Shown here in pieces: positions 34,008 to 62,256 of a stretch of DNA of 64,000 bases (position 1 is its first letter; each line of letters opens with the position of its first letter). The notes beneath the pieces are model-generated. The model did no database searches. It was not told where the DNA came from and saw only the letters and a program-made list of their open reading frames with translations. The stretch comes from an uncultured Flavobacteriaceae bacterium (GTDB lineage Bacteria > Bacteroidota > Bacteroidia > Flavobacteriales > Flavobacteriaceae), in NCBI GenBank assembly GCA_963752165.1, contig CAVVXE010000004.1, positions 5,437 to 69,436 of the forward strand. Direction: 5' to 3'. The translations under genes and the position numbers were made by a program.

Positions 34008-35288
34008 CTATTTAGTTGGCTTAATTATTTTCCCGCCTTTCATTACGAATGCTACCCGGGTTAATTCGGAGATATCATCAAGAGGGTTTTTCTTTGTGGC
34101 TATAATATCTGCCAATTTACCAACCTTAATGCTTCCAATTTCGTTATCCATCATAAGTAACGTTGCATTTACCTTAGTGCCCGCCAGTATTGCCTGGAGA
34201 GGGGTCATTCCTATTTCAGTAAGTAACTGGAATTCCTTACCAGCAAAATTAGGGGGGAATCCAACATTGTCTGAACCTACCCCTACTTTTACCCCTCTTT
34301 TTATTGCTTTCTCATACATCTTCCAGGAAGCCTCGCGGTGCTTAATTGTTAATTCATACATTTTTGCCTGCGCCTTGCTGTTCTTCCAGGTTTCGAGTCC
34401 ATATTCACTTACACACAAAGTAGGGATGAGATATGCATCATGCACTAAAAACAGGTCAATACTTTCATCATTAAGGAAGGTGCCATGTTCTATGGATCTC
34501 GCCCCAAACGTAATGGCTTTATTGATGCCTTCAGTAGCATGGGCGTGCGCCATGACAGGAACACCCCTTCTTTTTGCTTCCTCCATAGCAGCAATAATTT
34601 CTTCATCGCTAAAGTGAACATTTTGCGGATTGTCCCCTTCAGACATAAAAGCACCGGTAATTAAAAGCTTGATCCAGTCGCTTCCAAATTTTATTTCTTT
34701 CCTAATAGCCTTTTGAATTTCATCTTTACCATTAACGACCAGCCCATCAGCAATAACGGATTGTTCAGGTGCTATAAAATTGATATCGCCTCCTCCGCCT
34801 GTAACGGATAAATAATGCCCTGCACCAAATATTCTCGGGCCATCAAACAGACCGGTGTTTATAGCATCCCTAATTTCAAAATGGGCATATTGTGTATCGG
34901 CATCACCGGCTACCCGTATTGTCGTCCAACCTTCGTTAAGCCAATCCTGAACTACTTTTAACCCCCTGAGTGCATTAAAGGCAGATGATCCTTTTATATG
35001 ATTTACCTGGTAATCGTCTCCATATATTAAGGGATGCACATGTGCATCAATTAATCCGGGCAGCACTGTATATTCTGTTAAATCTATTATTTTATGATCT
35101 GATTTTATAAGATCTCTGCTGCCAATTTGTACGATTCGTTCTTTATCGATGATCACTACCATATCCGTATAAACCTTATCATCTTCAGCTGTGATCAGCT
35201 TGCCACAAATAATGGCGGTTTTATCCTGGGCAGTAAGCGCAAGGGAAAACATCATTATCATAAGTGTAGATACCAATACTTTTTTCAT
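34008..35288 (-). CDS. amidohydrolase-family metallohydrolase (Xaa-Pro dipeptidase / imidazolonepropionase-like)
   Basis: 426 aa with a signal peptide, PGLIDAHVHP metal motif, VMAHAHA and a C-terminal GSIKVGKLADIIA motif. Confidence 0.8.
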   Translation of the reverse strand: MKKVLVSTLMIMMFSLALTAQDKTAIICGKLITAEDDKVYTDMVVIIDKERIVQIGSRDLIKSDHKIIDLTEYTVLPGLIDAHVHPLIYGDDYQVNHIKGSSAFNALRGLKVVQDWLNEGWTTIRVAGDADTQYAHFEIRDAINTGLFDGPRIFGAGHYLSVTGGGGDINFIAPEQSVIADGLVVNGKDEIQKAIRKEIKFGSDWIKLLITGAFMSEGDNPQNVHFSDEEIIAAMEEAKRRGVPVMAHAHATEGINKAITFGARSIEHGTFLNDESIDLFLVHDAYLIPTLCVSEYGLETWKNSKAQAKMYELTIKHREASWKMYEKAIKRGVKVGVGSDNVGFPPNFAGKEFQLLTEIGMTPLQAILAGTKVNATLLMMDNEIGSIKVGKLADIIATKKNPLDDISELTRVAFVMKGGKIIKPTK

Positions 35289-47318: not shown

Positions 47319-48953
47319 ATGAAAAACAATTTACTAATGCTATGTATTTTCTTGGCATCGCTATCCTACGGTCAACAGAAAACAACTTCAAACGACACCT
47401 ATGATCTCGTCATTTTAAACGGTCGTGTCATAGATCCTGAAACGCTCTTTGACGATGTCGCAAATGTGGGCATCAAGGACGGTCGCATTGTCGCGATTAC
47501 TAAAAAGGCAATCAAAGGCACAGAAACTGTGGATGCAACAGGTAAAATTGTTGCGCCCGGCTTCATTGATACGCATTTCCACTTTCAAACGCCAATCGGT
47601 TATTCCCTTGGATTGCGCGATGGCCTGACCAGCAGCATGGATTTCGAGATGGGCTGTGCGGGATCCTATATCGACCGCTGGTATAAAGATCGTGCCGGTG
47701 TGACCCAGGCCAACTATGGCATCGCGGTGAGTCACGAGTTTGCCCGCGCAATGTTCATCGACGGTTCAGACGGCGCCGATTACCTGAAAGACGGCCCCAT
47801 AGCCGCTTACACCACCCGGGCGAAAACGGGCTGGAGCCAAACACGTCCCACCCTGGAACAGGGCAACGCAATTCTCCAAGAGATTGACAAGGGCCTACAG
47901 GCTGGTGCCGTGGGAGTCGGCAGCACCGTGGGCTACATGAGAGAGGGCGTCTCTTCACGCGAGATGTTTGAAATACAGAAAGTCGGCGCACGCTATGGTC
48001 GCCCTACCGGCGCACATACACGCTATACGCTTGGCAACGACACACAAGAGAATAATGGCGCGCAGGAACTTATTGCCAACGCCGTGGCGCTTGGCGCCCC
48101 AGCGATCGTCGAGCACTTCAACAACCCCGGCTGGCGCCTTGCGCACGAAATGGTCACCGGGCTTCAAGAGCAGGGCCACAATATATGGGGTGAAATCTAT
48201 CCCTACGCTGCGGGTTCCACCACGATTAATGCTTCGTTCCTGGAGCCTCAAGTCTGGCTCGATGTCATGGGTAATCGCTATGAAGATACCATGCTGGATC
48301 CGGTCACGAATGAGTATTATACCCTGGAGACTTATAAGGCCACCGTCGCATCCGAACCGACCAGGCCGATCGTCATTTTCAAGATGCCCGAGGAAGACCA
48401 GGCGAAGTGGTTGACGCTCAAAGGTGTGACCATGGCCAGCGATGCGGTTGGAGCCACGCCCTACCTCGCACCATGGGATTACCCGATGGACTCACTTGGC
48501 GGCACCCACCCCCGCACGGCTGGTGCCCGAGGCGCTACGATAAGACTAGGTCGGGAAAACAACATCCCGATGATGCAGCTAATGTCGATCCTTAGCTACA
48601 ACGCAGCTAAGCATATGGGCGATACGGGGCTGAAGTTCATGCAAGAGCGCGGCCGCATCCAGACCGGCATGGTTGCCGATATCGTGGTGTTTGACCCGGA
48701 AACCTTCAGGGATAATTCAACCTACCAAAAGGGTGCTGTCCCTTCAACGGGCATGAGAGCGGTGATCGTCAACGGTCAGGTGGTTGTGCGCGACGATGTG
48801 CAACTCCCGGTTTTTCCTGGTCAGCCGATCCGTTTTGAACCGGAAGACAAGCCGCGTTTCGAGCCGATCTCGGTAGAATCGTGGAATGCCCAATTCTCGA
48901 CCGGTATGCCATCTGGATTCACGGGAGGTGTTCCTGAGGACCACAAACACTGA
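47319..48953 (+). CDS. N-acyl-D-amino-acid deacylase (D-aminoacylase)-like amidohydrolase, exported
   Basis: Signal peptide, then YDLVILNGRVIDPE...GIKDGRIVAI...APGFIDTHFHF and C-terminal GRIQTGMVADIVVFDP. The body is GC-rich and the 5' ~80 nt is AT-rich. Overlapping ORFs 47415..48595 are shadows. Confidence 0.75.
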   Translation: MKNNLLMLCIFLASLSYGQQKTTSNDTYDLVILNGRVIDPETLFDDVANVGIKDGRIVAITKKAIKGTETVDATGKIVAPGFIDTHFHFQTPIGYSLGLRDGLTSSMDFEMGCAGSYIDRWYKDRAGVTQANYGIAVSHEFARAMFIDGSDGADYLKDGPIAAYTTRAKTGWSQTRPTLEQGNAILQEIDKGLQAGAVGVGSTVGYMREGVSSREMFEIQKVGARYGRPTGAHTRYTLGNDTQENNGAQELIANAVALGAPAIVEHFNNPGWRLAHEMVTGLQEQGHNIWGEIYPYAAGSTTINASFLEPQVWLDVMGNRYEDTMLDPVTNEYYTLETYKATVASEPTRPIVIFKMPEEDQAKWLTLKGVTMASDAVGATPYLAPWDYPMDSLGGTHPRTAGARGATIRLGRENNIPMMQLMSILSYNAAKHMGDTGLKFMQERGRIQTGMVADIVVFDPETFRDNSTYQKGAVPSTGMRAVIVNGQVVVRDDVQLPVFPGQPIRFEPEDKPRFEPISVESWNAQFSTGMPSGFTGGVPEDHKH

Positions 48954-48969
48954 TCGTGACAATTACACC

Positions 48970-49006
48970 CAACGGGTTAATAAATAGTTTTTTTATTAAT
49001 CCGTTG
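48970..49006 (+). terminator. AT-rich hairpin after the D-aminoacylase-like gene
   Basis: caacgggttaataaa-tagtttt-tttattaatccgttg has one mismatch and is bounded by ACCCAAC ... GTTGCTG. Confidence 0.5.
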
Positions 49007-49033
49007 CTGTTTAAATGAGTAAATAAAATCAAA

Positions 49034-50785
49034 ATGAAAAAAATAGTATTCACACTTTTAGGAATCTTACTATTGCTATCTTCTTGTAAAGAAGGTGCCA
49101 AAAGTAATAAGGAAACGCCTGCGTCTTCTTCTGATATAACCATCTATTATGGTGGTGACATTATTACCATGGAAGGAGAAGAAGCACAATATGCTGAAGC
49201 TGTGGTTCAGCAAAATGGCAAAATCACTTTCGTAGGTACACTAAAAGACGCAGAAAAACAATTTCCCAAAGCCAACAAAAACGATTTGCAAGGCAAAACA
49301 CTTTTACCTGGATTTATTGATGGGCATGGCCACCTTTATCTAACAGGTTTTTACAATATGATGGCCAATCTAATGCCTCCGCCAGATGGAAATTGCAATA
49401 GTATTCAAGGCGTAGTAGATGAGATGAATACATGGAAAGATTCAGAAAAAGGGAAGTTTTTTTTGAACAAGTTTGGATGGCTGGTCGGCTTTGGGTATGA
49501 CGATTCTCAATTGGCAGAAAAAGAACATCCCACGGCCGATGACCTGGACAAAGTAAGCACGGAAGTTCCTGTCATTATTGTACATCAGTCAGGTCATTTG
49601 GGTTCGGTGAACCATAAGGCATTGGAAGTTTTCAATATCACGAAAGAGAGTCAAGATCCAGTAGGAGGTCACATCAGAAAAGATGCCGATGGCAATCCAA
49701 ATGGAATCCTTGAAGAAACCGCATTTCAGCCCTTACAATTGCAAATGTTGCCCAAAATAGACGATGAAATAGATGCTAAAATTGTTGAAAACGGACAAAA
49801 AATGTATGCCCAATTTGGATACACCACTGCACAGGAAGGTGGCGGCGTTACAGGCTTTAACAATTCTTTGAAAAAAGCGGCAGATAACGGAGAACTTTAT
49901 ATAGATTTGGTAAACTACCCGGTTATGGATATGGGCATTGAAGCCATGGACAGCAAGTATTATACAAAAGATCATAGTTACTTGAACCATTATCGTGTAG
50001 GCGGGGTAAAATTAGTATTGGATGGGTCACCACAGGGAAAAACGGCATGGCTTACCCAGCCCTATTTTGTACCACCTTCAGGGAAAGACCATCATTATCA
50101 TGGGTACCCTAAATATACAAAGGAAGATGCGCAAAAATTTATTGATCAGGCGTTCCAAAATCAATGGCAATTATTGGCGCACACCAATGGAGACGCTGCT
50201 GTGGATGAATTTCTTTTCGGCATCAAGGAGGCCTTAAAAAATCATGGCTACGATGATCATCGTTCCACAATAATTCATGGGCAGGTGATTCGGAAAGATC
50301 AGATCCAACAAATCGCTGATTTAAATGTGCTCGCTTCCGAGTATGCGGTACATACCTTCTATTGGGGCGACTGGCATTTAAACTCAGTGCTAGGATCGCC
50401 ACGGGCAGAATACATCTCGCCTACCAGAGACCTTATAGACGCAGGAATTAATTTAACCAGTCATTCAGACTGCCCGGTGATACCCCCCAATTCATTAAGA
50501 ATAATCGATGCTACCACAAACCGGGTAACCCGAAGTGGATTGATACTCGGCCCAGGACAGCGGACGACGCCTTATGAAGCCTTGCTTTCACAAACGCGTT
50601 GGGGCGCTTATCAGTATTTTGAGGAAGACCACAAAGGGACGCTCACCGTAGGCAAATTGGCTGATTTTGTGATTTTAGACCAAAATCCGCTAAAAATTGA
50701 TCCCATGAAGATTCATACCATAAAAGTGGCAGAAACCATCAAGGAAGGGAAACAGGTCTATGAAAATAATGATTCCAATTATTAA
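49034..50785 (+). CDS. amidohydrolase-3 family (YtcJ-like) metallohydrolase, lipoprotein
   Basis: Lipobox LLLSSCKE, then LLPGFIDGHGHL, LVLDGSPQGKTAW, AHTNGDAAVD and a C-terminal GTLTVGKLADFVILD motif. Confidence 0.8.
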   Translation: MKKIVFTLLGILLLLSSCKEGAKSNKETPASSSDITIYYGGDIITMEGEEAQYAEAVVQQNGKITFVGTLKDAEKQFPKANKNDLQGKTLLPGFIDGHGHLYLTGFYNMMANLMPPPDGNCNSIQGVVDEMNTWKDSEKGKFFLNKFGWLVGFGYDDSQLAEKEHPTADDLDKVSTEVPVIIVHQSGHLGSVNHKALEVFNITKESQDPVGGHIRKDADGNPNGILEETAFQPLQLQMLPKIDDEIDAKIVENGQKMYAQFGYTTAQEGGGVTGFNNSLKKAADNGELYIDLVNYPVMDMGIEAMDSKYYTKDHSYLNHYRVGGVKLVLDGSPQGKTAWLTQPYFVPPSGKDHHYHGYPKYTKEDAQKFIDQAFQNQWQLLAHTNGDAAVDEFLFGIKEALKNHGYDDHRSTIIHGQVIRKDQIQQIADLNVLASEYAVHTFYWGDWHLNSVLGSPRAEYISPTRDLIDAGINLTSHSDCPVIPPNSLRIIDATTNRVTRSGLILGPGQRTTPYEALLSQTRWGAYQYFEEDHKGTLTVGKLADFVILDQNPLKIDPMKIHTIKVAETIKEGKQVYENNDSNY

Positions 50786-50805
50786 TAGTTAAAAAAACAA
50801 AAATC

Positions 50806-51735
50806 ATGAAACAATTAAAAACAGTATCTGCTGACAAAAGTATTGCTCAGAAGATCGAGAAAATTACCCAAGGGCTGGTTGGCCGCATTGGTGTGGCTGC
50901 ACAGGAACTTAGTTCAGGGCTGCATGTCAGCATAAATGGCGATGAAACCTTTTGTATGGCGAGTGCTTATAAAGTAGCGATCGCCGCGAAAGTGATGGAT
51001 CTCGTGGACAAAGGGGAACTCAGTCTCGACCAGATGGTCGACGTCCCGCAAGACATGTATGTCGCCGGCGTAGTTGCGATTGCCGAGAGATTCCCCTACC
51101 CCGGGGTCCAGTTCTCGTTAGCGAACTTGATATATCCGATGATCACAGAGAGTGACAACACGGCGACCGACGTTTGCATGAAGCTAGTAGGTGGACCAGC
51201 AGCGGTGACCGAGAACCTCCGCAGGCTCGGGATCACCGACTTCAGAGTCGACAGGCCTGTCCGCGGGATTCTCATGGATTTCTACGGCCTGTCAGCGGTC
51301 AACCCAGTTGCTATCGTTGAGGCCATCGGCAAGAACCCTGCACTGGTGGCGGCCCAGGTTGATTGCAATCTAGACTTCGAGGCGGATCCCCGCGATCACA
51401 CTTCGCCCAATGCGTACCTGCAACTCCTGCTTGCCATCGACAATGGCACGGCGATGAGCCCGAAAAGCCGTGAGTTCCTGCTAGGTGTCATGTCGCGCAC
51501 GCGCACCGGCGATGGCCGACTCAAGGGATTGTTGCCCAAGGGAACGCCCGTAGCACACAAGACCGGAACCTTAGGCGGAGTTGCCAACGACGTGGGCTAT
51601 ATCACACTTCCCGACGGTCGAAGATTTGCCATTGCGGTGTTCACCAACAGCAGCATGACACCCGCTGAGGACAGAGAACGCGCTATTGCAGAAGTTGCCC
51701 GCGCTTTATACGACTTTTACTATCTCCAGTCATAA
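50806..51735 (+). CDS. class A beta-lactamase-family serine hydrolase, copy 1 (no signal peptide)
   Basis: SxxK (MASAYK), SDN (ESDNTA) and KTG (HKTGT) motifs are present. It is GC-rich and starts 20 nt after the upstream stop with MKQLKTVSADKS, which has no hydrophobic leader. Confidence 0.8.
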   Translation: MKQLKTVSADKSIAQKIEKITQGLVGRIGVAAQELSSGLHVSINGDETFCMASAYKVAIAAKVMDLVDKGELSLDQMVDVPQDMYVAGVVAIAERFPYPGVQFSLANLIYPMITESDNTATDVCMKLVGGPAAVTENLRRLGITDFRVDRPVRGILMDFYGLSAVNPVAIVEAIGKNPALVAAQVDCNLDFEADPRDHTSPNAYLQLLLAIDNGTAMSPKSREFLLGVMSRTRTGDGRLKGLLPKGTPVAHKTGTLGGVANDVGYITLPDGRRFAIAVFTNSSMTPAEDRERAIAEVARALYDFYYLQS

Positions 51736-51762
51736 GGCAAATAAGATTTTTCATGCATAAGA

Positions 51763-51812
51763 CCTTGGTTGCGACGGGCGGCGCGAAATGGTGCCGCCCA
51801 ACCAAGGCTTTT
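51763..51812 (+). terminator. long GC-rich hairpin between the two beta-lactamase-like genes
   Basis: ccttggttg-cgac-gggcggc...gccgccc-aaccaagg followed by cttttgg. Confidence 0.6.
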
Positions 51813-51861
51813 GGTTCTCATATCAGATAAACTCAATTATTAATATTTAAAAAATAGAATC

Positions 51862-52848
51862 ATGAAAAAACACATTGTACTTTTATTTACTGTAATAATC
51901 TCGTCATTATTTGCAGTTCAACCGGCATTAGCTCAGAAGCAAAATATAAAAGATGTTTCTCAGAAGATAGAGAAACTTACGGAGAAGCTGGTTGGCCGCA
52001 TTGGTGTGGCTGCACAGGAAATTGGCGGCGACGAGGTCATCGCGATCAATGGTGATGAGACCTTCGCCATGGCCAGCACCTATAAGGTGGCGATCGCCGC
52101 GAAAGTGATGGATCTCGTGGACAAGGGGGAACTCAGTCTCGATCAAATGGTCGACGTTCCGCAAGACATGTATGTCGCCGGCGAAGTTGCGATTGCCGAG
52201 AGATTCCCTTACTCTGGGGTCCAGTTCTCGTTAGCGAACTTGATATATCCGATGATCACAGAGAGTGACAACACGGCGACCGACGTCTGTTTGAAGCTGG
52301 TAGGTGGACCAGCAGCAGTGACCGAGAACCTGCGCAGGCTCGGGATCACCGACTTCAGGGTCGACAGGCCTGTCCGCGAGATTCTCATGGATTTCTACGG
52401 CTTGCCAGCGGTCACCCCGGAAGCTATCGTTGAGGCCATCAGCAAGAACCCGGCACTGATTGCGGCCCAGCTTGATCCTAATCCGGACTTCGAGGCGGAT
52501 CCCCGCGACCATACAACGCCCAATGCATACCTGAAACTCCTGCTTGCCATAGACAATGGCACAGCGATGAGCCCTGAAAGTCGTGAGTTCCTGCTGGGCG
52601 TCATGTCGCGCACGCGTACCGGCGCCGGCCGACTCAAGGGATTGCTGCCGAAGGGAACGCCCGTAGCGCACAAGACCGGAACCTTAGGCGGAGTTGCCAA
52701 CGATGCTGGCTATATCACGCTCCCTGATGGTAGACGATTTGCTATCGCCGTGTTCACCAACAGTAGTGAGACGCCCTCTGCTGACAGAGAACGTGCTATT
52801 GCGGAAGTTGCCCGCGCTTTATATGACTTTTATTATTTAAAGTCATAA
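51862..52848 (+). CDS. class A beta-lactamase-family serine hydrolase, copy 2 (with signal peptide)
   Basis: MKKHIVLLFTVIISSLFAVQPALAQ leader (AT-rich), then a GC-rich body about 9 in 10 residues identical to copy 1. Motifs MASTYK, ESDNTA, HKTGT. Confidence 0.85.
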   Translation: MKKHIVLLFTVIISSLFAVQPALAQKQNIKDVSQKIEKLTEKLVGRIGVAAQEIGGDEVIAINGDETFAMASTYKVAIAAKVMDLVDKGELSLDQMVDVPQDMYVAGEVAIAERFPYSGVQFSLANLIYPMITESDNTATDVCLKLVGGPAAVTENLRRLGITDFRVDRPVREILMDFYGLPAVTPEAIVEAISKNPALIAAQLDPNPDFEADPRDHTTPNAYLKLLLAIDNGTAMSPESREFLLGVMSRTRTGAGRLKGLLPKGTPVAHKTGTLGGVANDAGYITLPDGRRFAIAVFTNSSETPSADRERAIAEVARALYDFYYLKS

Positions 52849-52884
52849 AACACATATTTATTTAACTATTAAAAATTAAACATT

Positions 52885-54153
52885 TTGAGTAAACAAGACA
52901 GAATAAACGAGATGCTAAACTTAGTAACTCCCATGAGCAAATGGAAAAAGCCGCAATCAGTTGATTTTGTTGATGCTGCTACAAAACGATATAGTTTTCC
53001 AAACTGGCAATCAGGAAGCGAAGATTCCATTTATTACAATTTACATATACCGGAATTTTTTAAATGTTGTGTGGTGCCAGCACCAGCGAATTCAACTACT
53101 ATAGAACGAGATCTTCATCCTGATTTATTGGATATAACTTTTACTGCATTTGACGGAACTACTACGCCTACTTTAAAAGAGTATTTAGGGGGAAAACGGC
53201 AGGTGCAAGCCATGATGATGGCGCACAAAGGAAAAGTGGTCTTTGAAACGTATCCGGGAATGAATCCAAATGATATACACATATGGATGTCGGCAGCTAA
53301 AACAACGGTGGGTTTATTGATTATGCTTCTTGCTGAAGATGGTAAGATAGATCTTGAAAAACCAATACCTACCTATGTACCAAGGTTAAAAGGTTCAGCT
53401 TGGGAAAAGGTAAGTGTAAAAAATGCCATGAACATGTCATCCGGACTTGATATTGAAGAAACGATAGAGAATCTATTGAATCCAAAATCCTGGATTGCGA
53501 ATTGGTTTACCGCTGCTTTTGAAGAAGGAAAAGGGGATTGGATAGCAATGGCTCAAGATGCACAACCTTTACCAAATGAATCTCCAGGTGAGCGTTTCAG
53601 ATATTCTGGTGCTAACACCATGATGCTGGTGCTTGTCACGGAACATGTAACAGGTATGCGGTGGCAAGAATACTTTAATGAACGCGTATGGTCTAAGATG
53701 GGAGCAAAAGGACAGTTCATTTGTGCACTTGCAGAGGGTATTCCATTAGGTGCAGGGCTTCACAATTGTACACCGGAAGATTTTCTTCGTTTTGCATTAA
53801 TACATACACCAAGCTGGAATGCAGTAGCAAGCGAACAGATCGTTTCAGATAATGTACTTAAAGCCATCCAAGATCTAGGAAACCATAAAGCCTATAAAGG
53901 ATCTACAGAAGAACAGTATGGTTCCGATTGGTTTGGAGAAGTTCCGGAAAAAAATACAGCACAATGGGATCATTATTTTCCTGATGGAGGCATGTTCAAA
54001 CACGGAAATATGGGGCAAGGGATCTATGTAGATCCGAAGCGTGACTTTTGTGGAATATACTTTGGCTTAGCCCCAAATCAAGATGAAATATCGGGAATCG
54101 ATCATTCACCCGGGTATTTAAGAGCTGCAGCGAAAAAGTTAGCAGGGAAATAA
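52885..54153 (+). CDS. beta-lactamase-related (class C / DD-peptidase / esterase-type) serine hydrolase
   Basis: 422 aa (TTG start in the track). SxxK motif in IWMSAAKTTVGLLI and general family-VIII esterase/aminopeptidase-like layout; no signal peptide. Confidence 0.65.
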   Translation: MSKQDRINEMLNLVTPMSKWKKPQSVDFVDAATKRYSFPNWQSGSEDSIYYNLHIPEFFKCCVVPAPANSTTIERDLHPDLLDITFTAFDGTTTPTLKEYLGGKRQVQAMMMAHKGKVVFETYPGMNPNDIHIWMSAAKTTVGLLIMLLAEDGKIDLEKPIPTYVPRLKGSAWEKVSVKNAMNMSSGLDIEETIENLLNPKSWIANWFTAAFEEGKGDWIAMAQDAQPLPNESPGERFRYSGANTMMLVLVTEHVTGMRWQEYFNERVWSKMGAKGQFICALAEGIPLGAGLHNCTPEDFLRFALIHTPSWNAVASEQIVSDNVLKAIQDLGNHKAYKGSTEEQYGSDWFGEVPEKNTAQWDHYFPDGGMFKHGNMGQGIYVDPKRDFCGIYFGLAPNQDEISGIDHSPGYLRAAAKKLAGK

Positions 54154-54167
54154 TAAATTAGTATAAG

Positions 54168-54208
54168 AAAAGGGCTCTGCCCGTAAAGCAGAGCTCTTTT
54201 AAAATGGA
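54168..54208 (+). terminator. hairpin element copy 1 (terminator-like, repeated three times)
   Basis: gggctctgc-ccgtaaa-gcagagctc followed by ttttaaaa. Related copies lie at 56168-56220 and 57576-57620. Confidence 0.65.
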
Positions 54209-54309
54209 GACCAAAAGCTTTATATCCATACACGATCTGGAAACGCTTATTTACAGCTTGCTTACTGTACTGTAAACTCTAATATAGCAAGTCCAGGATA
54301 TTCAGGAAC

Positions 54310-55155
54310 CTATTCAGGAAACAGAAAACTAACCGTAAACTGAATTTGACCTCCCTTGGCTCCAAGATCCGGTCTGACAGCATTATAATAGTAAGCTAGT
54401 GAGCCTTTAACGGCTTGATCTCCAAAGTGACCTAGTTTTGATACACTTAATCCGAAAGGAACAACGGCTTTTTGACCTTTCTCTGCATTCCAGTTTACAG
54501 TAATGGTAGGTCCAGTGCCTACTGTCCAACCTTTTGGTAAGTTGTAATTAATAAAATATTGAGTAAAAAATGAATTTTGAGGTCTCTCTTCTGAGCTGGC
54601 TTTATAATAGCCCCAGTTTTGAGCGGCCACAAAACCTAATGTCCATTTTCCAATACCGGTAAACATAACTACAGAGGGGCCAACGGCAAATCTGCCATTG
54701 CCCAATTCTGGTGATGTTGTGGCAGGAATGATGAGGCTTGGACCAAATCCGTAGGCGGTTTTACCGATAGGCTTTGGCGAAAAAAACGCAGTATAATTGA
54801 TTGCCCCAACTCCAAAAGTCTGCCCTGTTTCTGAATTGAGATCTGGCTGTATCTGGATAGGGATAATAGCCCGATTAATCATATTCCAATCTTTACCTAT
54901 TTTAGCAGGAAGTACAGGCTCTACGTTCAATACATATTGAGTTCTATCAAACTCGCCATTACCAAAGAAAAAATTGAATTGAAAAGGTATACTAATTAGT
55001 GATGCAATGGGATTTTGAGAAGCTTCAACAAGATCTTGTTGAGCATTATTGCTAGATTCAGCATTAGAAGAATCGGCTGGTGTCACTTGACCGTAGCTAT
55101 AAATAAAACATAACATAACCAGGGCAGCTGCCAGTATTATTTCTTTAGATTTCAT
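54310..55155 (-). CDS. outer-membrane beta-barrel channel, possibly Phenol_MetA_deg-type transporter family
   Basis: 281 aa with a signal peptide. NPIASLISIPFQFNFFFG...LNVEPVLPAKIG..WNMINRAIIPI matches my recollection of that family. It is the only minus-strand gene inside the + strand hydrolase block. Confidence 0.5.
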   Translation of the reverse strand: MKSKEIILAAALVMLCFIYSYGQVTPADSSNAESSNNAQQDLVEASQNPIASLISIPFQFNFFFGNGEFDRTQYVLNVEPVLPAKIGKDWNMINRAIIPIQIQPDLNSETGQTFGVGAINYTAFFSPKPIGKTAYGFGPSLIIPATTSPELGNGRFAVGPSVVMFTGIGKWTLGFVAAQNWGYYKASSEERPQNSFFTQYFINYNLPKGWTVGTGPTITVNWNAEKGQKAVVPFGLSVSKLGHFGDQAVKGSLAYYYNAVRPDLGAKGGQIQFTVSFLFPE

Positions 55156-55412
55156 TTTTATATAATTTAAGATATGAAGAATATATAGTTTGGCGTCTTT
55201 TACATAGCCAATGAAATATTGATTTTATTTTTTAATTTTCAAAAATTTATTTCAAATCAATATTAAAAATAGTATAATTTATAGCTTATAAAATTAGATT
55301 CGTGATGAATACTCCTTTTTTACTACTTAAGTAGTAGATCATTTATTACACGTTTTTTTTACCTTTTGATTGTATTATAAACTGGTGCTTTAGCACGGTG
55401 AATGACCAGTGG

Positions 55413-56163
55413 TGGGAAAGTGCCATGAACGTGTCATCCGGACTTGATATTGAAGAAACTATAGCGAATCTATTGAATCCAAAATCCTGGATTGCGAATT
55501 GGTTTACCGCTGCTTTTGAAGAAGGAAAAGGGGATTGGATAGCAATGGCTCAAGATGCACAACCTTTACCCAATGAATCTGCAGGTGAGCGTTTCAGATA
55601 TTCTGGTGCGAATACCATGATGCTGGTGCTTGCCACGGAACATGTAACAGGTGTGCGATGGCAAGAATACTTTAATGAACGGGTATGGTCTAAGATGGGA
55701 GCCAAAGGACAGTTTATTTGTGCGCTTGCAGAGGGCATTCCTTTAGGTGCAGGGCTTCACAATTGTACCCCGGAAGATTTTCTTCGTTTTGCATTAATAC
55801 ATACACCAAGTTGGAATGCAGTAGCAAGCGAACAGATCGTTTCAGATGATGTACTTAAAGCCATCCAGGATCTTGGAAATCCATAAAGCTTATAAAGGAT
55901 CTACAGAAGAACAGTATGGTTCAGATTGGTTTGGAGAAGTTCCGGAAAAAAATACAGCACAATGGGATCATTATTTTCCTGATGGAGGCATGTTCAAACA
56001 TGGAAATATGGGACAAGGGATCTATGTAGATCCGAAGCGTGACTTTTGTGGAATATACTTTGGCTTAGCCCCAAATCCGGATGAAATTTCAGGAATTGAT
56101 CATTCACCCTGGCTATTTAAGAGCTGCTGCAAAAAAGTTAGCAGGGAAATAATAAATGAGTAA
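55413..56163 (+). pseudogene. duplicated 3' two thirds of the 52885..54153 serine hydrolase gene, frameshifted
   Basis: 55413-56200 aligns with 53401-54205 with a few mismatches per 60 nt. It has a 12-14-nt gap near the start, a 1-nt insertion at ~55880 and another at ~56110. The track shows it as two ORFs (55398..55886, 55846..56163). Confidence 0.85.
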
Positions 56164-56167
56164 CCAA

Positions 56168-56220
56168 AAGAGCTCTGCCCATAAGCAGGGCCCTATTAAA
56201 TAACTTTAAAACAGAAAATT
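56168..56220 (+). repeat. hairpin element copy 2 (degenerate) abutting the amidohydrolase start codon
   Basis: agagctctgcccataagcagggccc...ctttaaaacagaaaatt. The final 17-mer is identical to 57604-57620. Confidence 0.7.
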
Positions 56221-57570
56221 ATGAAAAACTTAAAAATGAAACTACTAACCACAGCAATTGCCTTGATTGGATGGTATTCGGTCGCTATTGCACAGGACAA
56301 GCCAAAACAAATTACACTTTTTACCAATGTACAGGTATTTGATGGCGTATCCGATAAACGGTTCAAATCGGATGTTTTGGTTGAAGGAAACATCATCAAA
56401 CAAATATCTAAAGAACCTTTGATGGTTGCACAAACTGATAATGTGACCATCATAAACGGTGAAGGGCGCACGCTGATGCCTGGCCTTACAGATTGTCATT
56501 GGCACAGCATGGGGGCCTATATGACTGAGAACCCGTTTGCGGCTGGTGCGGGCAAACTAAATCTCGTGGCGGTCCATGGGTCGGAAAAGACGCTTATGCG
56601 GGGCTTCACCACAGTGAGAGACGTGGGCGGCCCTGTATTTGATGTAAAGGCGGTAATCGACGAGGGTATGTTCGTTGGCCCCCGGATCTACGCTGCGGGT
56701 TCGATGATTTCCCAAACATCTGGACATGGCGATTTCCGTAGCCCGATTGATATCCCTCAAAGCTATTCACGACAGCTTACTCCGCAAGAAAGGATGGGTA
56801 CGGTCGCGATCGCAGACGGCAGGGCACAAGTCATGCAGCGCGTGCGCGAGAACCTGATGCATGGGGCGGCCTTTATCAAGCTCATGGGCGGTGGAGGTGT
56901 CGCTTCCCCTTCGGATCCTCTCGACGTATCGCAATACACCATCGATGAAATCGCTGCAGCAGTTGAAGTCGCGGAGAACTGGGGCACCTATGTGACCGTT
57001 CACTCCTATACCGCGAAGGCGATCCAGAACGCGATCCGCGGCGGTGTCCGTAATGTAGAGCACGGCCAGTTGATTGACGAGGAAACAGCAAAACTTATGA
57101 AGGAGAAGAATACTTCAGTTGTTATGCAGCCCTTCTATAACGATGAGGATGCCATCCCACTGCCAAAAGGTTCATTTGCGGAAAAAAAATACCAGCAACT
57201 GATCTCAGGAACCGATAATGCCTACGCCTTAGCAAAGAAATATAACTTGCTCCTCGGATTTGGGACAGATTCGCAGGGTAATCCGGCACTCGCAGAGCGT
57301 CAGGGGGCTCAGTTGGCGAAGCTCGTCCGCTATTTCGAGCCGTGGGAAGTGCTGAAGATTGCGACCAGCCAGAACTATCAGATCATGAAGCGTTCCGGGC
57401 CTCGTGATCCCTATCCCGGTGAGAACGGTGTGGTTAAAGAAGGTGCATTAGCCGACCTGCTTTTGGTAGACGGAAATCCCCTGGAGGATATTGACCTCAT
57501 TGCCGATCCGCATAAAAACTTCGTGATCATCATGAAAGACGGCGTGATCTACAAAAATTCTATAAAATAA
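56221..57570 (+). CDS. amidohydrolase-family metallohydrolase (Xaa-Pro dipeptidase-like), exported
   Basis: Signal peptide, then PGLTDCHWH, VTVHSYT, NVEHG and a C-terminal GALADLLLVDGNPLEDI motif. The first ~250 nt are AT-rich and the remainder GC-rich. Confidence 0.8.
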   Translation: MKNLKMKLLTTAIALIGWYSVAIAQDKPKQITLFTNVQVFDGVSDKRFKSDVLVEGNIIKQISKEPLMVAQTDNVTIINGEGRTLMPGLTDCHWHSMGAYMTENPFAAGAGKLNLVAVHGSEKTLMRGFTTVRDVGGPVFDVKAVIDEGMFVGPRIYAAGSMISQTSGHGDFRSPIDIPQSYSRQLTPQERMGTVAIADGRAQVMQRVRENLMHGAAFIKLMGGGGVASPSDPLDVSQYTIDEIAAAVEVAENWGTYVTVHSYTAKAIQNAIRGGVRNVEHGQLIDEETAKLMKEKNTSVVMQPFYNDEDAIPLPKGSFAEKKYQQLISGTDNAYALAKKYNLLLGFGTDSQGNPALAERQGAQLAKLVRYFEPWEVLKIATSQNYQIMKRSGPRDPYPGENGVVKEGALADLLLVDGNPLEDIDLIADPHKNFVIIMKDGVIYKNSIK

Positions 57571-57575
57571 AAAGA

Positions 57576-57620
57576 AGAGAGCTCTGCCCGTAAAGCAGAG
57601 CCTCTTTAAAACAGAAAATT
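57576..57620 (+). terminator. hairpin element copy 3
   Basis: agagagctctgc-ccgtaaa-gcagagcctct followed by ttaaaacagaaaatt. Confidence 0.65.
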
Positions 57621-57799
57621 AAGGCAATTTTAAAAAACAAACCGCTTTTTCTTTTCGCCTTTGGTTTTGTTTTGACTAAATAACGACAAGAAAATTGTGT
57701 GTCACATCCAAAATGATCTATGATAAATAGATGAACAAAAGTTTATAAACAAAAAGGACGCTTCAATAAGAGAAGTATTCTTTAATACAGATAGCTAAA

Positions 57800-59380
57800 A
57801 TGAAAGAATCAAATATGAAAGAATCAAATATGTTCGATGACGACGCGGCCAGCCTCGCGCGGCTGTGCGACACCGGCCTATCCCTAGACCCGCAGCGAAT
57901 CGCCCTCATCCAGGACAAGCGGTCCATGACGTATGCAGAGCTCGAGCAGCGCATCAATCGGGTCGCCAATGGGCTGATCTCGCTCGGAGTAGAGCCGTTC
58001 GAGCGCGTCCTCGTCATCTTCGAGAACGACATCCGCTTCCCCGAAGTCCTGCTCGGTATCGTCAGGGCCGGCGCCGTAGCGGTCCCGGTCAACTTCAAGT
58101 TCAAGTTGCCGCAGCACATCGATCTGGCTCAGGACTGTGGGAGTCGCATCATCTTCGGCAGCGCCGGGATGGCCGAATCTGTCCTCGGCTGCCTGGCCGA
58201 GGGGGGTGCCGAGGTCGGTATCGTCGTCGATGCCGACCGGGGTCCGCTTCGAAGCTATGAGGACTGGCTGGCCTCATCTTCGCCCGAACACTGCGATCAT
58301 GGGTCGGCCGGCAGGGAGGTCTGCATCCAGGCGTACACCTCGGGCTCGACCGGACGGCCCAAGGGGGTTCTTCTCTCGCACCGTGGGCTTCTGCGTAACG
58401 CTCAGCTCCTGGCGGAGTACAACCGGATCGACGAGAACTCACGGGTCTTGTTGTCGACGCCGCTCTTCCACATGAACGCCACTGGCGCGGGGCTCCTCCC
58501 ATGCCTGAGCCAGGGTGGCTCGGTGGTCATTCTCAAGGAGTTCGACGCGGAGCGCGTGATCGACGCGATTGAGACGCACGGCTGCACGTACACCACCGGT
58601 GTACCGGCCACGTACAAGCTGATTCTGGATGCCGCGCGACAAAGAACGCAGGTGGATGTCTCCAGCCTCGAGTTCATCACAGTGGGGTCTGCTCCCATGA
58701 CACGAGCGCTTCTCGACGAACTGGTCCAGACCTTGCCGGGTGTCGATGTGATCGAAGGGTACGGGCTGACGGAATCTGGGCCCATCATCACCATGAATCC
58801 ACGCGGCCGAAACAAGCTGGGCACGATTGGTCCCGCTCTTCCGGGCTTCGAGTGCAAGGTCATCGACTCCGACGGGAACATTTTGCCACAGGGAGAGGCG
58901 GGAGAACTTGTCGTGCGGAGCGAGTGCAACGCCCTCGGCTATTACAACCGGCCGGACGCCCAGGCAGAGCGCTTCCGGGACGGCTGGGTGTATACCGCGG
59001 ATATGGTGTCGTGCGACCCCGACGGCTGGTTCACCTTCAGGGGGCGCGTCGACGACCAGATACAAGTGGGAGGCGAGAACGTCTTCCCGGCCGAAGTCGA
59101 GAACATCCTCTCCACGAATCCGGAAGTGCGGGACGTCTGTGTCGTTCCTGTACCCCACAAGGTGAAGGGCCAGGTTCCGGTGGCATTCGTGGTACGCAAG
59201 GTCGGGTCGAAGCTCAGCGAGAAGGAACTTATCGACTACTACATTGAGCGCGGACCCGCGTATTCCCATCCGCGCCATATCTACTTCATCGACGAGATGC
59301 CACTCTTGGGGACCAAGAAAACAGACCTGAAGGCTCTTCAAAGACAGGCTCTTGAAAGGCAGGCTCGCGAGTCAGGTTAA
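57800..59380 (+). CDS. AMP-dependent synthetase/ligase (acyl-CoA synthetase, ANL superfamily)
   Basis: AMP-binding signature YTSGSTGRPKGV plus GYGLTESG and a C-terminal LGTKKTDLKAL-type lysine region. It is very GC-rich and carries many shadow ORFs. The true start may be ATG 57830 (MFDDD...). Confidence 0.85.
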   Translation: MKESNMKESNMFDDDAASLARLCDTGLSLDPQRIALIQDKRSMTYAELEQRINRVANGLISLGVEPFERVLVIFENDIRFPEVLLGIVRAGAVAVPVNFKFKLPQHIDLAQDCGSRIIFGSAGMAESVLGCLAEGGAEVGIVVDADRGPLRSYEDWLASSSPEHCDHGSAGREVCIQAYTSGSTGRPKGVLLSHRGLLRNAQLLAEYNRIDENSRVLLSTPLFHMNATGAGLLPCLSQGGSVVILKEFDAERVIDAIETHGCTYTTGVPATYKLILDAARQRTQVDVSSLEFITVGSAPMTRALLDELVQTLPGVDVIEGYGLTESGPIITMNPRGRNKLGTIGPALPGFECKVIDSDGNILPQGEAGELVVRSECNALGYYNRPDAQAERFRDGWVYTADMVSCDPDGWFTFRGRVDDQIQVGGENVFPAEVENILSTNPEVRDVCVVPVPHKVKGQVPVAFVVRKVGSKLSEKELIDYYIERGPAYSHPRHIYFIDEMPLLGTKKTDLKALQRQALERQARESG

Positions 59381-59810
59381 GGAACGGGGCCTTCTCCGCT
59401 CCCCCGCTGAATTGCCATAGCGAGTGTTTACCGGACTTGGAGCCCGGGACGGGGCTTGCATCGCCTACCCACGATGATAATCGATCAGGACATCGGCACC
59501 GTCAAGAAGTCCTTCCCGCTGACCCGGTTGGCCAGGTTGTCTTTATTGTCGATGCAGAGGTAAGGGGTGCTAAGGCGTGGGATCTCTTCAAAAAAGGGGC
59601 TTTCCTTTTCGCATACAGAAGGGATTACTGATTGGAATTCGCTTTTTCAATGAGTTCTTAACAGTACGTCGGGCCCTGGCGGGATTGATGACGTGCAACC
59701 GCATTTTGCAATAAAAATGACAATAGTAGCAACTGATCTACTGATCCAAGTTACTTTTCCTTCTTTATTTGTAAGCGGAAAATTTTTTCTGTTTATAAAT
59801 AATTTTTTGA

Positions 59811-59879
59811 AACGAACTATCTCCGAGGCAGAGCCATAGTAGTACCTGCCGGCCGGCAGGCAGGTTTCGCTCGTTTCAT
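59811..59879. repeat. structured intergenic element with 16-bp perfect palindrome
   Basis: gaaacga...ccgaggcagagccatag...CCTGCCGGCCGGCAGG...tcgtttc. Outer 7-bp arms GAAACGA/TCGTTTC. The gaggcagagcc motif recurs at ~59983. Confidence 0.5.
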
Positions 59880-60018
59880 ACGCAATCAAGTTGAGCACAA
59901 GCTTTGACCTAAAAAGGTCAAAAAACAAAATTATTTGATTTGGATTCCAGTTTTCACTGGAATAACATTTTATCGGATACCTCGAGGCAGAGCCTAGAGG
60001 AATTCTTTTTGATTAAAT

Positions 60019-60426
60019 TTATATACTTGTTGAATTTCCTTGTTCATCGATATGAACAAATATCATTTCAGTTGCACATACCTCTTTCTGTGACCTTGTG
60101 TTAAACACTTGTACATACATTGTTATTGAAGTTTTACCAATGCCTGTAATGGTACCGTTGATACTTATAATGTCCTTAACTTTTACAGGGGCTTCAAATA
60201 ATACTTCACTCATTTTCAATGTAACAACTCGTCTATGACCAATTACCTGAGAGACGTGTCCAGATGCAGCTTCATCAATCCATTGTAAAAGGAATCCACC
60301 AAATAAATTATCATTAAGGCCAACATCTTTAGTCATGCAAACCTTCTTTTGCATGAGTTGACGTTCTAAGTACCCTTGATCTATTCCTAGTCTTTTGCAC
60401 TTAGCATTTATATCTTCATTTACCAT
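60019..60426 (-). CDS. acyl-CoA thioesterase, hotdog fold (YciA-like)
   Basis: 135 aa. LFGGFLLQWIDEAASGHVSQ...VVTLKMSEVLFEAPVKVKDIISING pattern. Confidence 0.7.
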   Translation of the reverse strand: MVNEDINAKCKRLGIDQGYLERQLMQKKVCMTKDVGLNDNLFGGFLLQWIDEAASGHVSQVIGHRRVVTLKMSEVLFEAPVKVKDIISINGTITGIGKTSITMYVQVFNTRSQKEVCATEMIFVHIDEQGNSTSI

Positions 60427-60442
60427 TTTATCCTATAATTTG

Positions 60443-60646
60443 TTAACACTCAACTGCTGCTTGTAAGCAGCTTGCTTTATTATTTGATACTCTATTTACC
60501 AATCCCCACTGATAAGCTTTATCTATAGCTATAAAAGTACCTGAATAGATAAGCTCTTTTGCTCGGTAGCGACCAATGTATTTTGGAAGTCTTTGGGTTC
60601 CACCAAAAGCAGGTAATACACCCCCATTTAACCTTAGGCTGTCCAA
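60443..60646 (-). pseudogene. internal fragment of an enoyl-CoA hydratase/isomerase (crotonase) gene
   Basis: LNGGVLPAFGGTQRLPKYIGRYRAKELIYSGTFIAIDKAYQWGLVNRV is the crotonase core. There is no N-terminal half upstream, where the GC-rich porin gene stop lies at 60717, and the frame ends prematurely. Confidence 0.65.
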
Positions 60647-60716
60647 AAACTGCTTGCTTCATTGCAAAAATAAAATCCCTAGGGTGCATTTGGGCGCATC
60701 CGGGCCTCTGTTGGGA

Positions 60717-62093
60717 TCAGAATGTCATTTGGCCTCGCAAACCGAACACGGCTACAGCATTCTTGTCGGGGTTCAAAGCCGGATTAAAAACAATTTGCAG
60801 GTTGGGCGACATCCTTAGGTTCTCGGTAACCTGGATCCTGAAGTAGACCTCGCTTATCCATTGGTCGTTGAGGTCGACCCCGAACGTAGCCGAATTAGGG
60901 CTGCCCCAGTTGAGGCCGACGCCAAGCTGGTGACTGCCGGGCTTGCTCTGGTATCCAAAACCAGCGCTTACCGCCTTATCGTAAAGGCCCCCGCCTTCAT
61001 GAGCCCAAGCGGCACGCAAGAACGGCAACCAGTGATTGCCCACAACATGGGAGAAAGACACATTGACGCCCCATCCGCTCTTCACGCCGCTAACGTCACT
61101 ATCATCCTGCTGCCAGACCGCGATATGCGCATTGTTGAACAAAAATCGCTTGCCACCTTCGGTGATCCCGATCTCCACGCTCTTCCAGGTGTTGAAGTCA
61201 CCGAAGAAAGTCTCGAAGCCGCTGAACATGGATGTCGGCTGGAAACCGGCGTCGATGATGCTGGCCGCCGCATAAACGTGGTCGGTCAGATAGCCGCCGA
61301 TCATCACGCCAAGCGCAGCGTCCGGCAACGTAATCATCGTGTTTGAGCCGATGGTAAAGGCCAGATTGTGAAAGCCGCTCCAAGGACTGGCCAACGCGTA
61401 AATATCGAAATATTCCTTCATATCAAGAAAGCCGACACGGAAGACAGCACGGTCCTCGGCGAAGACCTGCTTCCAATAGAGCGTGGTCGCGCGAAAGTGA
61501 TCGTTGTTGAAGACAGGTTCTGGCGTACCGACAAACCCGACTTCTACGCCGAAGGCTGCCGGTAAGATGTCGGTGTAGGCGTGCCGGTGTTCGATCTTGA
61601 ACTCAATGCTACCGGTGTTCGCTTTGCCGCGGTTCAGCAAGTCCCAGCCCCCAAAGAAGCGGAAGACCCCAGAGGCCGATGTGTTTTCGCCGAGGCTGTT
61701 GGTCGCGGCGAAACCCACTGCGAGGTAATCGCCGCCGAACCTGAGCCCTATGCTATCGGCAATACCAGCCTTCCATTTTTCCCACGGTTCGAGGAGATTG
61801 AGGTTGAAAAGATCTTTCTTCTCCTCGCGAGTATCCCTCAGGAGCGTATTAACTGCGTCGGGTCCACTCAAAGGGTCATGTTTAAGGTCCTGCGCGAAGG
61901 CAGGTTGCCAGCACATAGAGAATAAGAGCGCAGCCAGTGCCGCGACTCTCAGCCTTGGTGACAACAGGGCGTCTGCCGCACAGTAAAGATGCCCAAGGAG
62001 GGCGTTTCGCCCGGCGCTCAGACAAGAGCAACAGCCGACTTGGTCCAGGCGGCTGCGCATCGTGATTAAGGAAGATTGTAGTAAGCTCATCAT
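60717..62093 (-). CDS. carbohydrate-selective porin OprB-family-like outer-membrane channel
   Basis: GC-rich ORF ending in ...VFGLRGQMTF, with the leader RLRVAALAALLFSMCWQPAFAQ. Start placed at MMSLL (62093), but MRSRL (62060) is also possible. The track ORF start 62207 reads through a crotonase remnant in another frame. Confidence 0.6.
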   Translation of the reverse strand: MMSLLQSSLITMRSRLDQVGCCSCLSAGRNALLGHLYCAADALLSPRLRVAALAALLFSMCWQPAFAQDLKHDPLSGPDAVNTLLRDTREEKKDLFNLNLLEPWEKWKAGIADSIGLRFGGDYLAVGFAATNSLGENTSASGVFRFFGGWDLLNRGKANTGSIEFKIEHRHAYTDILPAAFGVEVGFVGTPEPVFNNDHFRATTLYWKQVFAEDRAVFRVGFLDMKEYFDIYALASPWSGFHNLAFTIGSNTMITLPDAALGVMIGGYLTDHVYAAASIIDAGFQPTSMFSGFETFFGDFNTWKSVEIGITEGGKRFLFNNAHIAVWQQDDSDVSGVKSGWGVNVSFSHVVGNHWLPFLRAAWAHEGGGLYDKAVSAGFGYQSKPGSHQLGVGLNWGSPNSATFGVDLNDQWISEVYFRIQVTENLRMSPNLQIVFNPALNPDKNAVAVFGLRGQMTF

Positions 62094-62094
62094 T

Positions 62095-62256
62095 TTAGGA
62101 TCTTGTAAAAACTGGGTGTCTTTTCTCAACAAATGCTTTGGTACCTTCTGCTTTGTCATGAGAGTTAGCAACCACTCCAAAAACTGTTGCTTCCTGGTGG
62201 ATACCATCTTTATCGTATGTATTGATTGTTTTATAACTAGTACTCATTTTTTTCAT
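62095..62256 (-). pseudogene. C-terminal remnant of a crotonase-fold gene
   Basis: 53-codon AT-rich ORF: MKKMSTSYKTINTYDKDGIHQEATVFGVVANSHDKAEGTKAFVEKRHPVFTRS. EG..AF.EKR.P.F is the canonical crotonase C-terminus. Confidence 0.5.

Follow-up and report, generated by a model that had tools for sequence, protein, structure and literature searches.

The stretch analysed here (the window) comprises 64,000 nucleotides (nt) of an uncultured Flavobacteriaceae bacterium (assembly GCA_963752165.1, contig CAVVXE010000004.1, positions 5,437 to 69,436). Its gene content is that of a Bacteroidota chromosome, with genes for a TonB-dependent receptor with a CarboxypepD_reg domain, a GldG-like ABC auxiliary protein and MnmE, whose closest named relatives are the proteins of Muriicola and Sediminicola (74-77% identity). 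A mosaic composition begins at ~47 kb and continues onward. Five plus-strand genes of this part are our subject: a D-aminoacylase-like amidohydrolase gene of the PRK09061 family (47319..48953), two class A beta-lactamase-like genes that we call bla1 (50806-51735) and bla2 (51862..52848), an amidohydrolase gene of the Amidohydro_1 family related to prolidase/ochratoxinase (56221..57570), and an acyl-CoA ligase gene of the AMP-binding family (57800..59380). In all likelihood, these are true mosaic genes, in which recombination joined low-GC, Bacteroidota-type 5' modules to GC-richer catalytic cores. Related loci of other genomes are designated below by L numbers.

A change-point test with permutation was applied to the GC content at third codon positions (GC3) of 42 open reading frames (ORFs) of the window. 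Significant change points were found in five of them, at codon 98 of the D-aminoacylase-like gene (from 0.43 to 0.65), codon 57 of bla1 (0.37 to 0.68), codon 33 of bla2 (0.21 to 0.64) and codon 74 of the amidohydrolase gene (0.34 to 0.59), each with p≤0.003, and at codon 10 of the ligase gene (0.20 to 0.78, p≤0.007); none was significant in the other 37 ORFs (p≥0.05). The reading frames of all five genes are intact. The first-pass annotation of this stretch had noticed composition switches within four of these genes, all of which are borne out by the test; bla1, which also switches, was missing from its list. As the switches are visible at third codon positions, the amino acid make-up of the signal peptides alone is not their cause. 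The GC3 of the 5' parts (0.20-0.43) resembles that of the adjoining genes at 25-47 kb (0.25-0.42).

Maximum chi-square breakpoint tests (2000 permutations) gave p≤0.0005 for all main triplets, with parental similarity flipping across every breakpoint. The breakpoints sit in conserved motifs, close to the GC3 switches. We also carried out the split-gene comparison proposed in the annotation, and found that the 5' parts and the cores have different nearest relatives. The annotation had set its reading against the case of both halves having the same relatives and the same composition gradient. Such is indeed the situation in the nearest alleles (L001, L002, L027 and L053), but no longer one step further out.

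The bla2 gene resembles a low-GC bla lineage (L027, L018) over codons 1 to ~44/56 and a GC-rich lineage in its core, from ~51994-52027. Over codons 1-48 it is 81-91% identical at the nt level to the former, falling to ~65% in the core (66% for L027). With gammaproteobacterial copies (L032, L040, L033) the pattern is inverted: identity is 87-88% over the core, locally 91-100%, and ~40% over the 5' part. Homology to the GC-rich copies begins at 51994. The breakpoint was placed at codons 54-56, with informative sites split 67:5 before it and 46:242 after it (p≤0.0005). Since both parents have a conserved GRIGVAAQEIGG, its position is uncertain within codons 44-56. The ~125 nt initially given for the AT-rich part are thus about right, the GC3 switch being at nt ~99. 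The parents of bla2 would be an L027-like low-GC bla gene and an L032/L040-like GC-rich one.

The bla1 gene has its own leader and low-GC 5' segment (50775..50980, with the leader at 50775-50805 and a segment of ~57-59 codons), and its breakpoint lies at codon 59 (p≤0.0005 by maximum chi-square). Its leader is homologous to that of bla2, and the gene codes for a protein without a signal peptide, as do its orthologs L001:7697, L002:2125, L005:3389, L013:789, L053:4643 and L057:7698. At least six loci thus keep this signal peptide-free class A form (MKETKTVSADKSIAQKIEK...). It is an unusual one for the beta-lactamase family and suggests a cytoplasmic role for bla1 and its orthologs. The two proteins scored 226.5 (bla1) and 232.2 bits (bla2) against NF033103 (cut-off 200) and reached the cut-off of no named class A subfamily. 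Their translations contain the active-site motifs of class A enzymes, i.e. STYK/SAYK (S-x-x-K), SDN and KTG. Based on the profile matches and these motifs, we consider them putative class A beta-lactamases. In bla2, ~45 residues of the omega-loop region (residues ~168-216, 52363-52509) are without equivalent in the closest solved class A structures, and the HMMER match between bla2 and the nearest of these, 6V4W, is broken into two stretches around them. Between bla1 and bla2, the AT-rich spacer harbours a GC-rich nested hairpin, CCTTGGTTGCGACGGGCGGCGCGAAATGGTGCCGCCCAACCAAGG (51763-51807), which may be a terminator or a repeat element.

The 5' cassette of bla2 (51826..51936, plus strand) is composed of a ~36 nt leader devoid of a Shine-Dalgarno motif, GATAAACTCAATTATTAATATTTAAAAAATAGAATC (51826-51861), and of 75 nt coding for the signal peptide MKKHIVLLFTVIISSLFAVQPALAQ (51862-51936). 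It ends at GCTCAG, which corresponds to the AxA|Q cleavage site. Homologous cassettes were identified at the DNA level on four protein families, namely class A beta-lactamases, PF00144 serine hydrolases, amidohydrolases and an unassigned outer membrane protein (OMP)-like protein. The carriers include other bla genes, the amidohydrolase types L002:4114 and L014:9905, PF00144 genes (L080 and others) and a gene for a 263-residue OMP-like protein (L083). The homology between families stops at the signal-peptidase site GCTCAG, and these cassettes exist both with and without a GGAG motif. The annotation had proposed that a foreign leader was replaced by a host-type signal peptide, and this distribution supports the proposal. 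For such unrelated partners, the same leader-plus-signal-peptide cassette would have been fused exactly at the signal-peptidase site, which points to illegitimate or microhomology-mediated joining, with functional products being selected thereafter.

In the D-aminoacylase-like gene, codons 1 to ~35 (47319-~47429, plus strand), which encode the signal peptide MKNNLLMLCIFLASLSYGQQ and the first mature residues, belong to an AT-rich Bacteroidota paralog lineage. They are 80-94% identical to L057:2, L010:3272 and L001:1454, the cores of which are 30-55% identical to that of the window gene. The next segment, codons ~37-56, shows 86-94% identity to GC-rich copies of alphaproteobacteria. Codons ~61-76 are similar to those of a third lineage, of low GC content (L027:5280, L001:3959), and the remainder is the GC-rich core. 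Its GC-rich relatives (L025/L035-like lineage) show the reverse pattern, with low similarity in the 5' part and high similarity in the core. The main breakpoint is at codons 33-37, with informative sites split 36:3 before it and 84:590 after it (p≤0.0005). Thus, the switch seen at first pass is significant, but it is not a simple two-part one, as sliding identity shows the first ~76 codons to be a patchwork of at least three lineages. The main parents would be an L057/L010-like AT-rich paralog and an L025/L035-like GC-rich lineage. Related loci such as L001 and L057 hold two tandem D-aminoacylase paralogs, and the upstream region in the window matches the first. Unequal crossing-over is therefore a plausible route to the chimera. 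An origin by a single deletion is insufficient, given the at least three segments. A 62-residue ORF of Eudoraea (L002:6864-7052) consists of a D-aminoacylase signal peptide and ~20 mature residues fused to the last ~20 residues of an amidohydrolase (..DPDKNFVVIMKDGKIYKNTLK); it is probably a non-functional by-product of similar recombination.

The amidohydrolase gene is a mosaic of three modules. The signal-peptide part (56221-56295) is followed by a low-GC segment coding for the N-terminal beta-sandwich (56296-~56450), and then, after a breakpoint at 56449-56466 within ..NGEGRTLMPGLTD.., by barrel strand beta1 with H93/H95 and the GC-richer core, to 57570. By maximum chi-square, the breakpoint is at codons 77-82, or at codons 53-54 against type D alleles (p≤0.0005). 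With the GC3 switch at codon 74, the first-pass position, ~250 nt and just before PGLTDCHWH, was about right. We distinguished five allele types, A to E, the window allele being of type A. Residues 85-449 are 89-95% identical among them, and across the five types the core is uniformly 85-100% identical; over residues 26-84, type A is only ~50-64% identical to types C, D and E. Type C retains the signal peptide of the window allele (84% amino acid, 85-88% nt identity), and type B retains its N-domain (92% nt) and has a different signal peptide. These combinations indicate that the gene has three modules. No further mosaic patches were found in the core of the window allele. That of L015:10001-11293 (Ignavibacteriaceae) has additional core patches at ~codons 96-106 and 126-136, where identity to the window falls to 68-73% and GC3 is raised, a feature also of proteobacterial type F. 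Further mosaicism is thus indicated in amidohydrolase alleles other than that of the window.

The N-terminal modules of the amidohydrolase recur on paralogs whose cores are only 45-52% identical to that of the window gene. L013:4344 has the N-domain in common with it (core, 51%), and L002:11410, the tandem neighbour in Eudoraea, the signal peptide (core, 45%); the Roseibium tandem paralog L037:11546 likewise carries the common signal peptide. The N-domain would thus have been exchanged with the paralogous subfamily of L013:4344. By contrast, the window's own paralog at 34008..35288, put forward earlier as a recombination partner, was rejected: its similarity is confined to the core (26% identity) and does not extend to the N-terminal part. 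Recombination between AT-rich and GC-rich homologs, as the first-pass annotation had suggested, is nevertheless seen in bla2, the D-aminoacylase-like gene and the amidohydrolase gene.

The amidohydrolase protein matches Amidohydro_1 of Pfam (1.3e-29), and H93 and H95 of its HxH metal motif are invariant in 44 homologs. Structure matches were obtained with PDB entries 3MKV (5e-63), 3FEQ and 4C5Y. In the AlphaFold model (pLDDT, i.e. predicted local distance difference test score, of 87.8), strands at residues 31-87 form an N-terminal accessory beta-sandwich, and barrel strand beta1 is at residues 89-94. According to this model, the junction falls at a domain boundary, directly before beta1. Assignment to the Xaa-Pro dipeptidase equivalog NF051886 was rejected (210 bits, cut-off 500).

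The ligase gene also shows a significant switch, as first noticed, but limited to the leader and the first 10 codons. The leader (57748-57799) and the first 11 codons (MKESNMKESNM), at 57748..57832 on the plus strand, are common to the Marinilabiliales copy of L010. Compared with the alphaproteobacterial copy of L046, the gene is 93% identical at the nt level from TTCGATGAC (57833) on, and the leader and the first ~10 codons differ. The ligase start (57800-57829) is an exact tandem duplication, MKESN-MKESN, of which L046:~11390 has a diverged duplicate, METTN-MGMTN.

Repeated intergenic modules accompany these genes. A terminator-like hairpin, GGGCTCTGCCCGTAAAGCAGAGCTC, is found 3' of the serine-hydrolase gene (54173..54204, plus strand). 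A second copy, together with the leader CTTTAAAACAGAAAATT devoid of a Shine-Dalgarno motif, is located directly upstream of the amidohydrolase start codon (56160..56220, plus strand). A third hairpin-plus-leader copy (57555..57642, plus strand) is followed by a dead start, AAG GCA ATT TTA AAA. This dead start (57604-57642) is the remnant 5' end of a peptidase-C45/AAT-like gene, which is intact in Eudoraea (L002:12821-14062). Such repeated modules could serve as recombination anchors. A role for them across phyla was discarded, as they are confined to Bacteroidota loci and L003.

We then compared hosts within one lineage of amidohydrolase cores (≥91% nt identity). In the window and in all 12 Bacteroidota loci, the gene is preceded by the leader CTTTAAAACAGAAAATT, devoid of a Shine-Dalgarno motif, and the encoded signal peptide is MKNLKMKLL. 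The copies found in Planctomycetes, Calditrichia, Ignavibacteria, Gemmatimonadales and 'proteobacterial' metagenome-assembled genomes (MAGs) have other signal peptides, with AAGG, AGGA or GGAG upstream. The start regions (-30 to +42) of the window genes have 19-26% GC and folding energies of -0.3 to -5.3 kcal/mol; those of the proteobacterial copies harbour AAGGAG, with 40-54% GC and -8 to -16 kcal/mol, in a comparison that covers all rows except the L025 amidohydrolase and the L057 paralog. Bacteroidetes do not use Shine-Dalgarno motifs, and their initiation is tuned by mRNA structure and upstream A residues (PMC6847099). The A-rich, near-unstructured leaders of the window fit this published mode of initiation. 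We infer that the match between 5' module and host initiation mode is selected for, and that a host-type module enables expression and export in Bacteroidota.

The 5' module would thus consist of an unstructured, A/T-rich leader that lacks a Shine-Dalgarno motif, followed by a Sec signal peptide; in both amidohydrolases, it would additionally take in part of the N-terminal subdomain. Between the homologous partners, i.e. the bla, D-aminoacylase and amidohydrolase genes, crossovers would have occurred in the short conserved stretches GRIGVAAQEIGG, YDLVILNGRVIDPET and GGRTLMPGLTDxHWH, as expected if alleles residing together, or tandem paralogs, undergo homologous recombination or gene conversion. 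Going further, each host lineage might keep a set of 5' adaptor cassettes, made up of a leader that suits its way of initiating translation, a signal peptide and in some cases an N-terminal subdomain. Onto these, incoming cores of a pool common to sediment bacteria of many phyla would be plugged by recombination, at conserved motifs or exactly at the signal-peptidase site. We put this forward only tentatively. If it were true, the expression barrier to transfer between phyla would be crossed in one step, and one adaptor would serve several unrelated enzymes.

A competing explanation, which we regard as possible though doubtful, is that the 5' switches are neutral by-products: gene conversion and unequal crossing-over would shuffle the modules, the resident 5' ends staying in place and the cores being overwritten, with no selection for host signals. 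Consistent with this view, tandem paralogs have common 5' modules in GC-poor as well as GC-rich genomes (L002:10001/11410, L037:10001/11546), the hairpin-plus-leader modules that flank genes could anchor recombination, and the remnant fusion of L002:6864-7052 and the dead start of the window at 57604-57642 have the look of error-prone shuffling. Nevertheless, the 5' module follows the host lineage very closely, with one core lineage spanning at least five phyla, and one cassette occurs in versions with and without a Shine-Dalgarno motif. Furthermore, the ligase gene exchanged only its leader and 10 codons, suggesting that the initiation region is the relevant unit.

Several observations weigh against selected joining of host-type 5' modules to foreign cores. 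The host correlation itself could arise from resident 5' ends and sweeping cores, without selection for compatibility. Both types of signal peptides look like ordinary Sec signals, and export alone may therefore not require a swap. One locus, L003 (CAVQMW010000005.1), is labelled delta proteobacterium and carries the Bacteroidota-type leader. It is the sole exception among crude MAG labels, and it could stem from mis-binning, from a crude label or from a very recent transfer. That locus has a GC content of 0.51 and harbours the Bacteroidota-type leader and matching signal peptides on both its bla and amidohydrolase genes. The low GC of the 5' ends overlaps the host range only in part. These ends had been described as host-like at first pass, which holds with respect to the genes at 25-47 kb, but they lie below the housekeeping genes at 1-25 kb (GC3 0.42-0.61). 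Lastly, near-identical donors were not found: the best 5' relatives are 81-94% identical at the nt level, and those of the amidohydrolase N-domain just 76-83%. A protein search with this N-domain alone retrieved 17 short fragments and no full-length low-GC donor. The parents can thus be given as lineages, not as sequences, and each event may have been either the replacement of a core in a resident gene or the capture of a leader by an incoming one.

Far less probable is an origin of the low-GC starts in place, by selection for weak mRNA structure, a codon ramp, signal-peptide make-up or faster N-terminal amelioration. A mild drop in GC3 over the first ~10 codons is present in the GC-rich relatives as well, the codons for Lys, Ile, Leu and Phe are abundant in signal peptides, and the ligase switch covers just 10 codons. 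However, other switches reach 33-98 codons and are seen at synonymous sites, and no change point was detected in any of the 37 other window ORFs. Moreover, the closer relatives of the 5' segments sit on very different cores, and parental similarity flips at sharp breakpoints.

Identical junctions were found in an isolate, Eudoraea adriatica DSM 19308, as well as in >10 independent MAGs. Their recurrence in an isolate and in independent assemblies shows that they are not assembly artefacts and, as they are present in other genomes, that recombination predates the window genome. The chimeras would have formed before this genome split from its relatives and spread thereafter. The ratios of nonsynonymous to synonymous substitution rates (dN/dS) of the cores range from 0.06 to 0.49, and thus the chimeras are maintained by purifying selection. 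A joining of reads from a low-GC and a GC-rich organism in assembly or binning has next to no probability, even with breakpoints in conserved motifs, where mis-joins are possible, and many related loci near contig ends, since the junctions recur in that isolate and in many long-read MAGs from different samples, the frames are intact, as the annotation had already argued, and the cores are under purifying selection.

Mosaic penicillin-binding-protein genes are an example of intragenic recombination after horizontal transfer. The window genes are similar in that adjacent segments have different nearest relatives, that breakpoints lie in conserved stretches and that a resident and an incoming homolog would recombine. 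Unlike in known mosaic genes, it is consistently the 5' end that is exchanged (the leader and signal peptide, in some cases with an N-terminal subdomain), the partners are of very different GC contents and from different phyla, a single cassette is common to unrelated genes, and the 5' module correlates with the translation-initiation mode of the host. Lepore-type fusion genes are formed by unequal crossing-over between tandem paralogs. Likewise, the upstream region and 5' end of the D-aminoacylase-like gene match the first tandem paralog and its body matches the second type; in contrast with the Lepore case, identities are only ~82-84% and there are at least three segments. In the variable surface lipoprotein families vsa, vlp and vsp of Mycoplasma, a single promoter and signal-peptide region serves alternative bodies. 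The window genes have in common with them a conserved leader-plus-signal-peptide DNA before different mature regions, with the junction just after the signal peptide. However, no recombinase, inverted recombination sites or sign of phase variation was found here, and the bodies are unrelated enzymes encoded by separate, complete genes. The window leaders are like native Bacteroidia leaders in lacking Shine-Dalgarno motifs and in being A-rich and nearly unstructured (PMC6847099); unlike in those native genes, such a leader would have been acquired here by a horizontally transferred core.

Mosaic genes that result from horizontal transfer have been described, including a mosaic aph(3')-IIa (PMC4437187) and partial-transfer mosaics (PMC3241670), and duplicative transfer followed by gene conversion is established (PMC3337133). 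For natural signal-peptide exchange after transfer, the literature searched gave engineering papers only, and it held nothing on these genes in Eudoraea. Consistent exchange of a 5' module for expression and export, its correlation with the initiation mode of the host and the reuse of one leader-plus-signal-peptide cassette on unrelated enzymes were not found described in that literature and appear to be new. A main barrier to functional gene transfer between distant phyla is believed to lie in foreign promoters, ribosome-binding sites and export signals, and it should be especially high into Bacteroidota because of the absence of Shine-Dalgarno pairing. The genes described here are a repeated natural example where it appears to be crossed by a swap of the 5' end, a possible route to expression in a new host. 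With junctions mapped to a few codons and one core present with different 5' modules according to phylum, they provide matched natural controls. They also have a bearing on the movement of environmental beta-lactamase-like genes between phyla.

The cores of the switch genes are 82-95% identical at the nt level to genes of MAGs and isolates from ~10 phyla. The relatives of the amidohydrolase have 75-97% amino acid identity. Among isolates, their loci are found in Eudoraea adriatica DSM 19308 (L002) and Roseibium aggregatum IAM 12614 (L037), and related proteins are also named from Marinobacter, Sulfitobacter and Shewanella. The long-read MAG carriers are labelled Flavobacteriaceae, Cyclobacteriaceae, Marinilabiliales, Cytophagales, Calditrichia, Ignavibacteriaceae, Planctomycetes, Gemmatimonadales, Acidobacteriota, Chloroflexia and several proteobacterial classes. 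In most related loci, the neighbours of the amidohydrolase gene, i.e. those for the D-aminoacylase, an Amidohydro_3 lipoprotein, the class A beta-lactamase, the serine hydrolase and the ligase, co-occur in shuffled order. The 47-60 kb part of the window is thus an island of hydrolase genes from a pool common to many sediment phyla.

A search of a plasmid collection with 47000-59500 of the window gave no match, and hence no known plasmid vector. No integrase or transposase domains were found in the ORFs scanned, attC sites not having been searched with a dedicated model, and the scan detected no tRNA genes, no repeats bounding the island and only one weak inverted repeat. An exact look-up of bla2 in a contig index returned no record. 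An integron-type or recombinase-driven cassette system was rejected, given the lack of a recombinase or flanking sites and the nature of the repeated intergenic unit, a terminator-like hairpin plus leader.

Region 47319-63909 encodes two class A beta-lactamase-like proteins, the D-aminoacylase, three kinds of amidohydrolases, the serine hydrolase and the acyl-CoA ligase, along with a 4HBT thioesterase (60019-60426), an enoyl-CoA hydratase (63304-63909) and an OprB porin. The Eudoraea locus (L002:1-14062) additionally harbours genes for an MlrC/M81 peptidase and a protein of the AAT (6-aminopenicillanic acid (6-APA) acyltransferase) family. Speculatively, this gene content recalls an island for the catabolism of a beta-lactam or of a peptide containing D-amino acids.

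The host genes of the window fall into two composition classes, with GC3 values of 0.42-0.61 at 1-25 kb, one ORF at 9533 excepted, and of 0.25-0.42 in the next 22 kb. The low-GC block at 25000-47000 may itself be a variable region. Within the island, the 3' ~740 bp of the serine-hydrolase gene (53420-54163) are duplicated at 55417-56157 with 95% identity. Between the two copies lie a minus-strand OMP-like ORF (54310-55155, GC3 0.28) and a very AT-rich stretch (55140-55380, GC 0.17-0.20). As the serine-hydrolase gene abuts the amidohydrolase gene directly in L001, L002 and L053, the segment at 54204-56157 looks like an insertion accompanied by a duplication.

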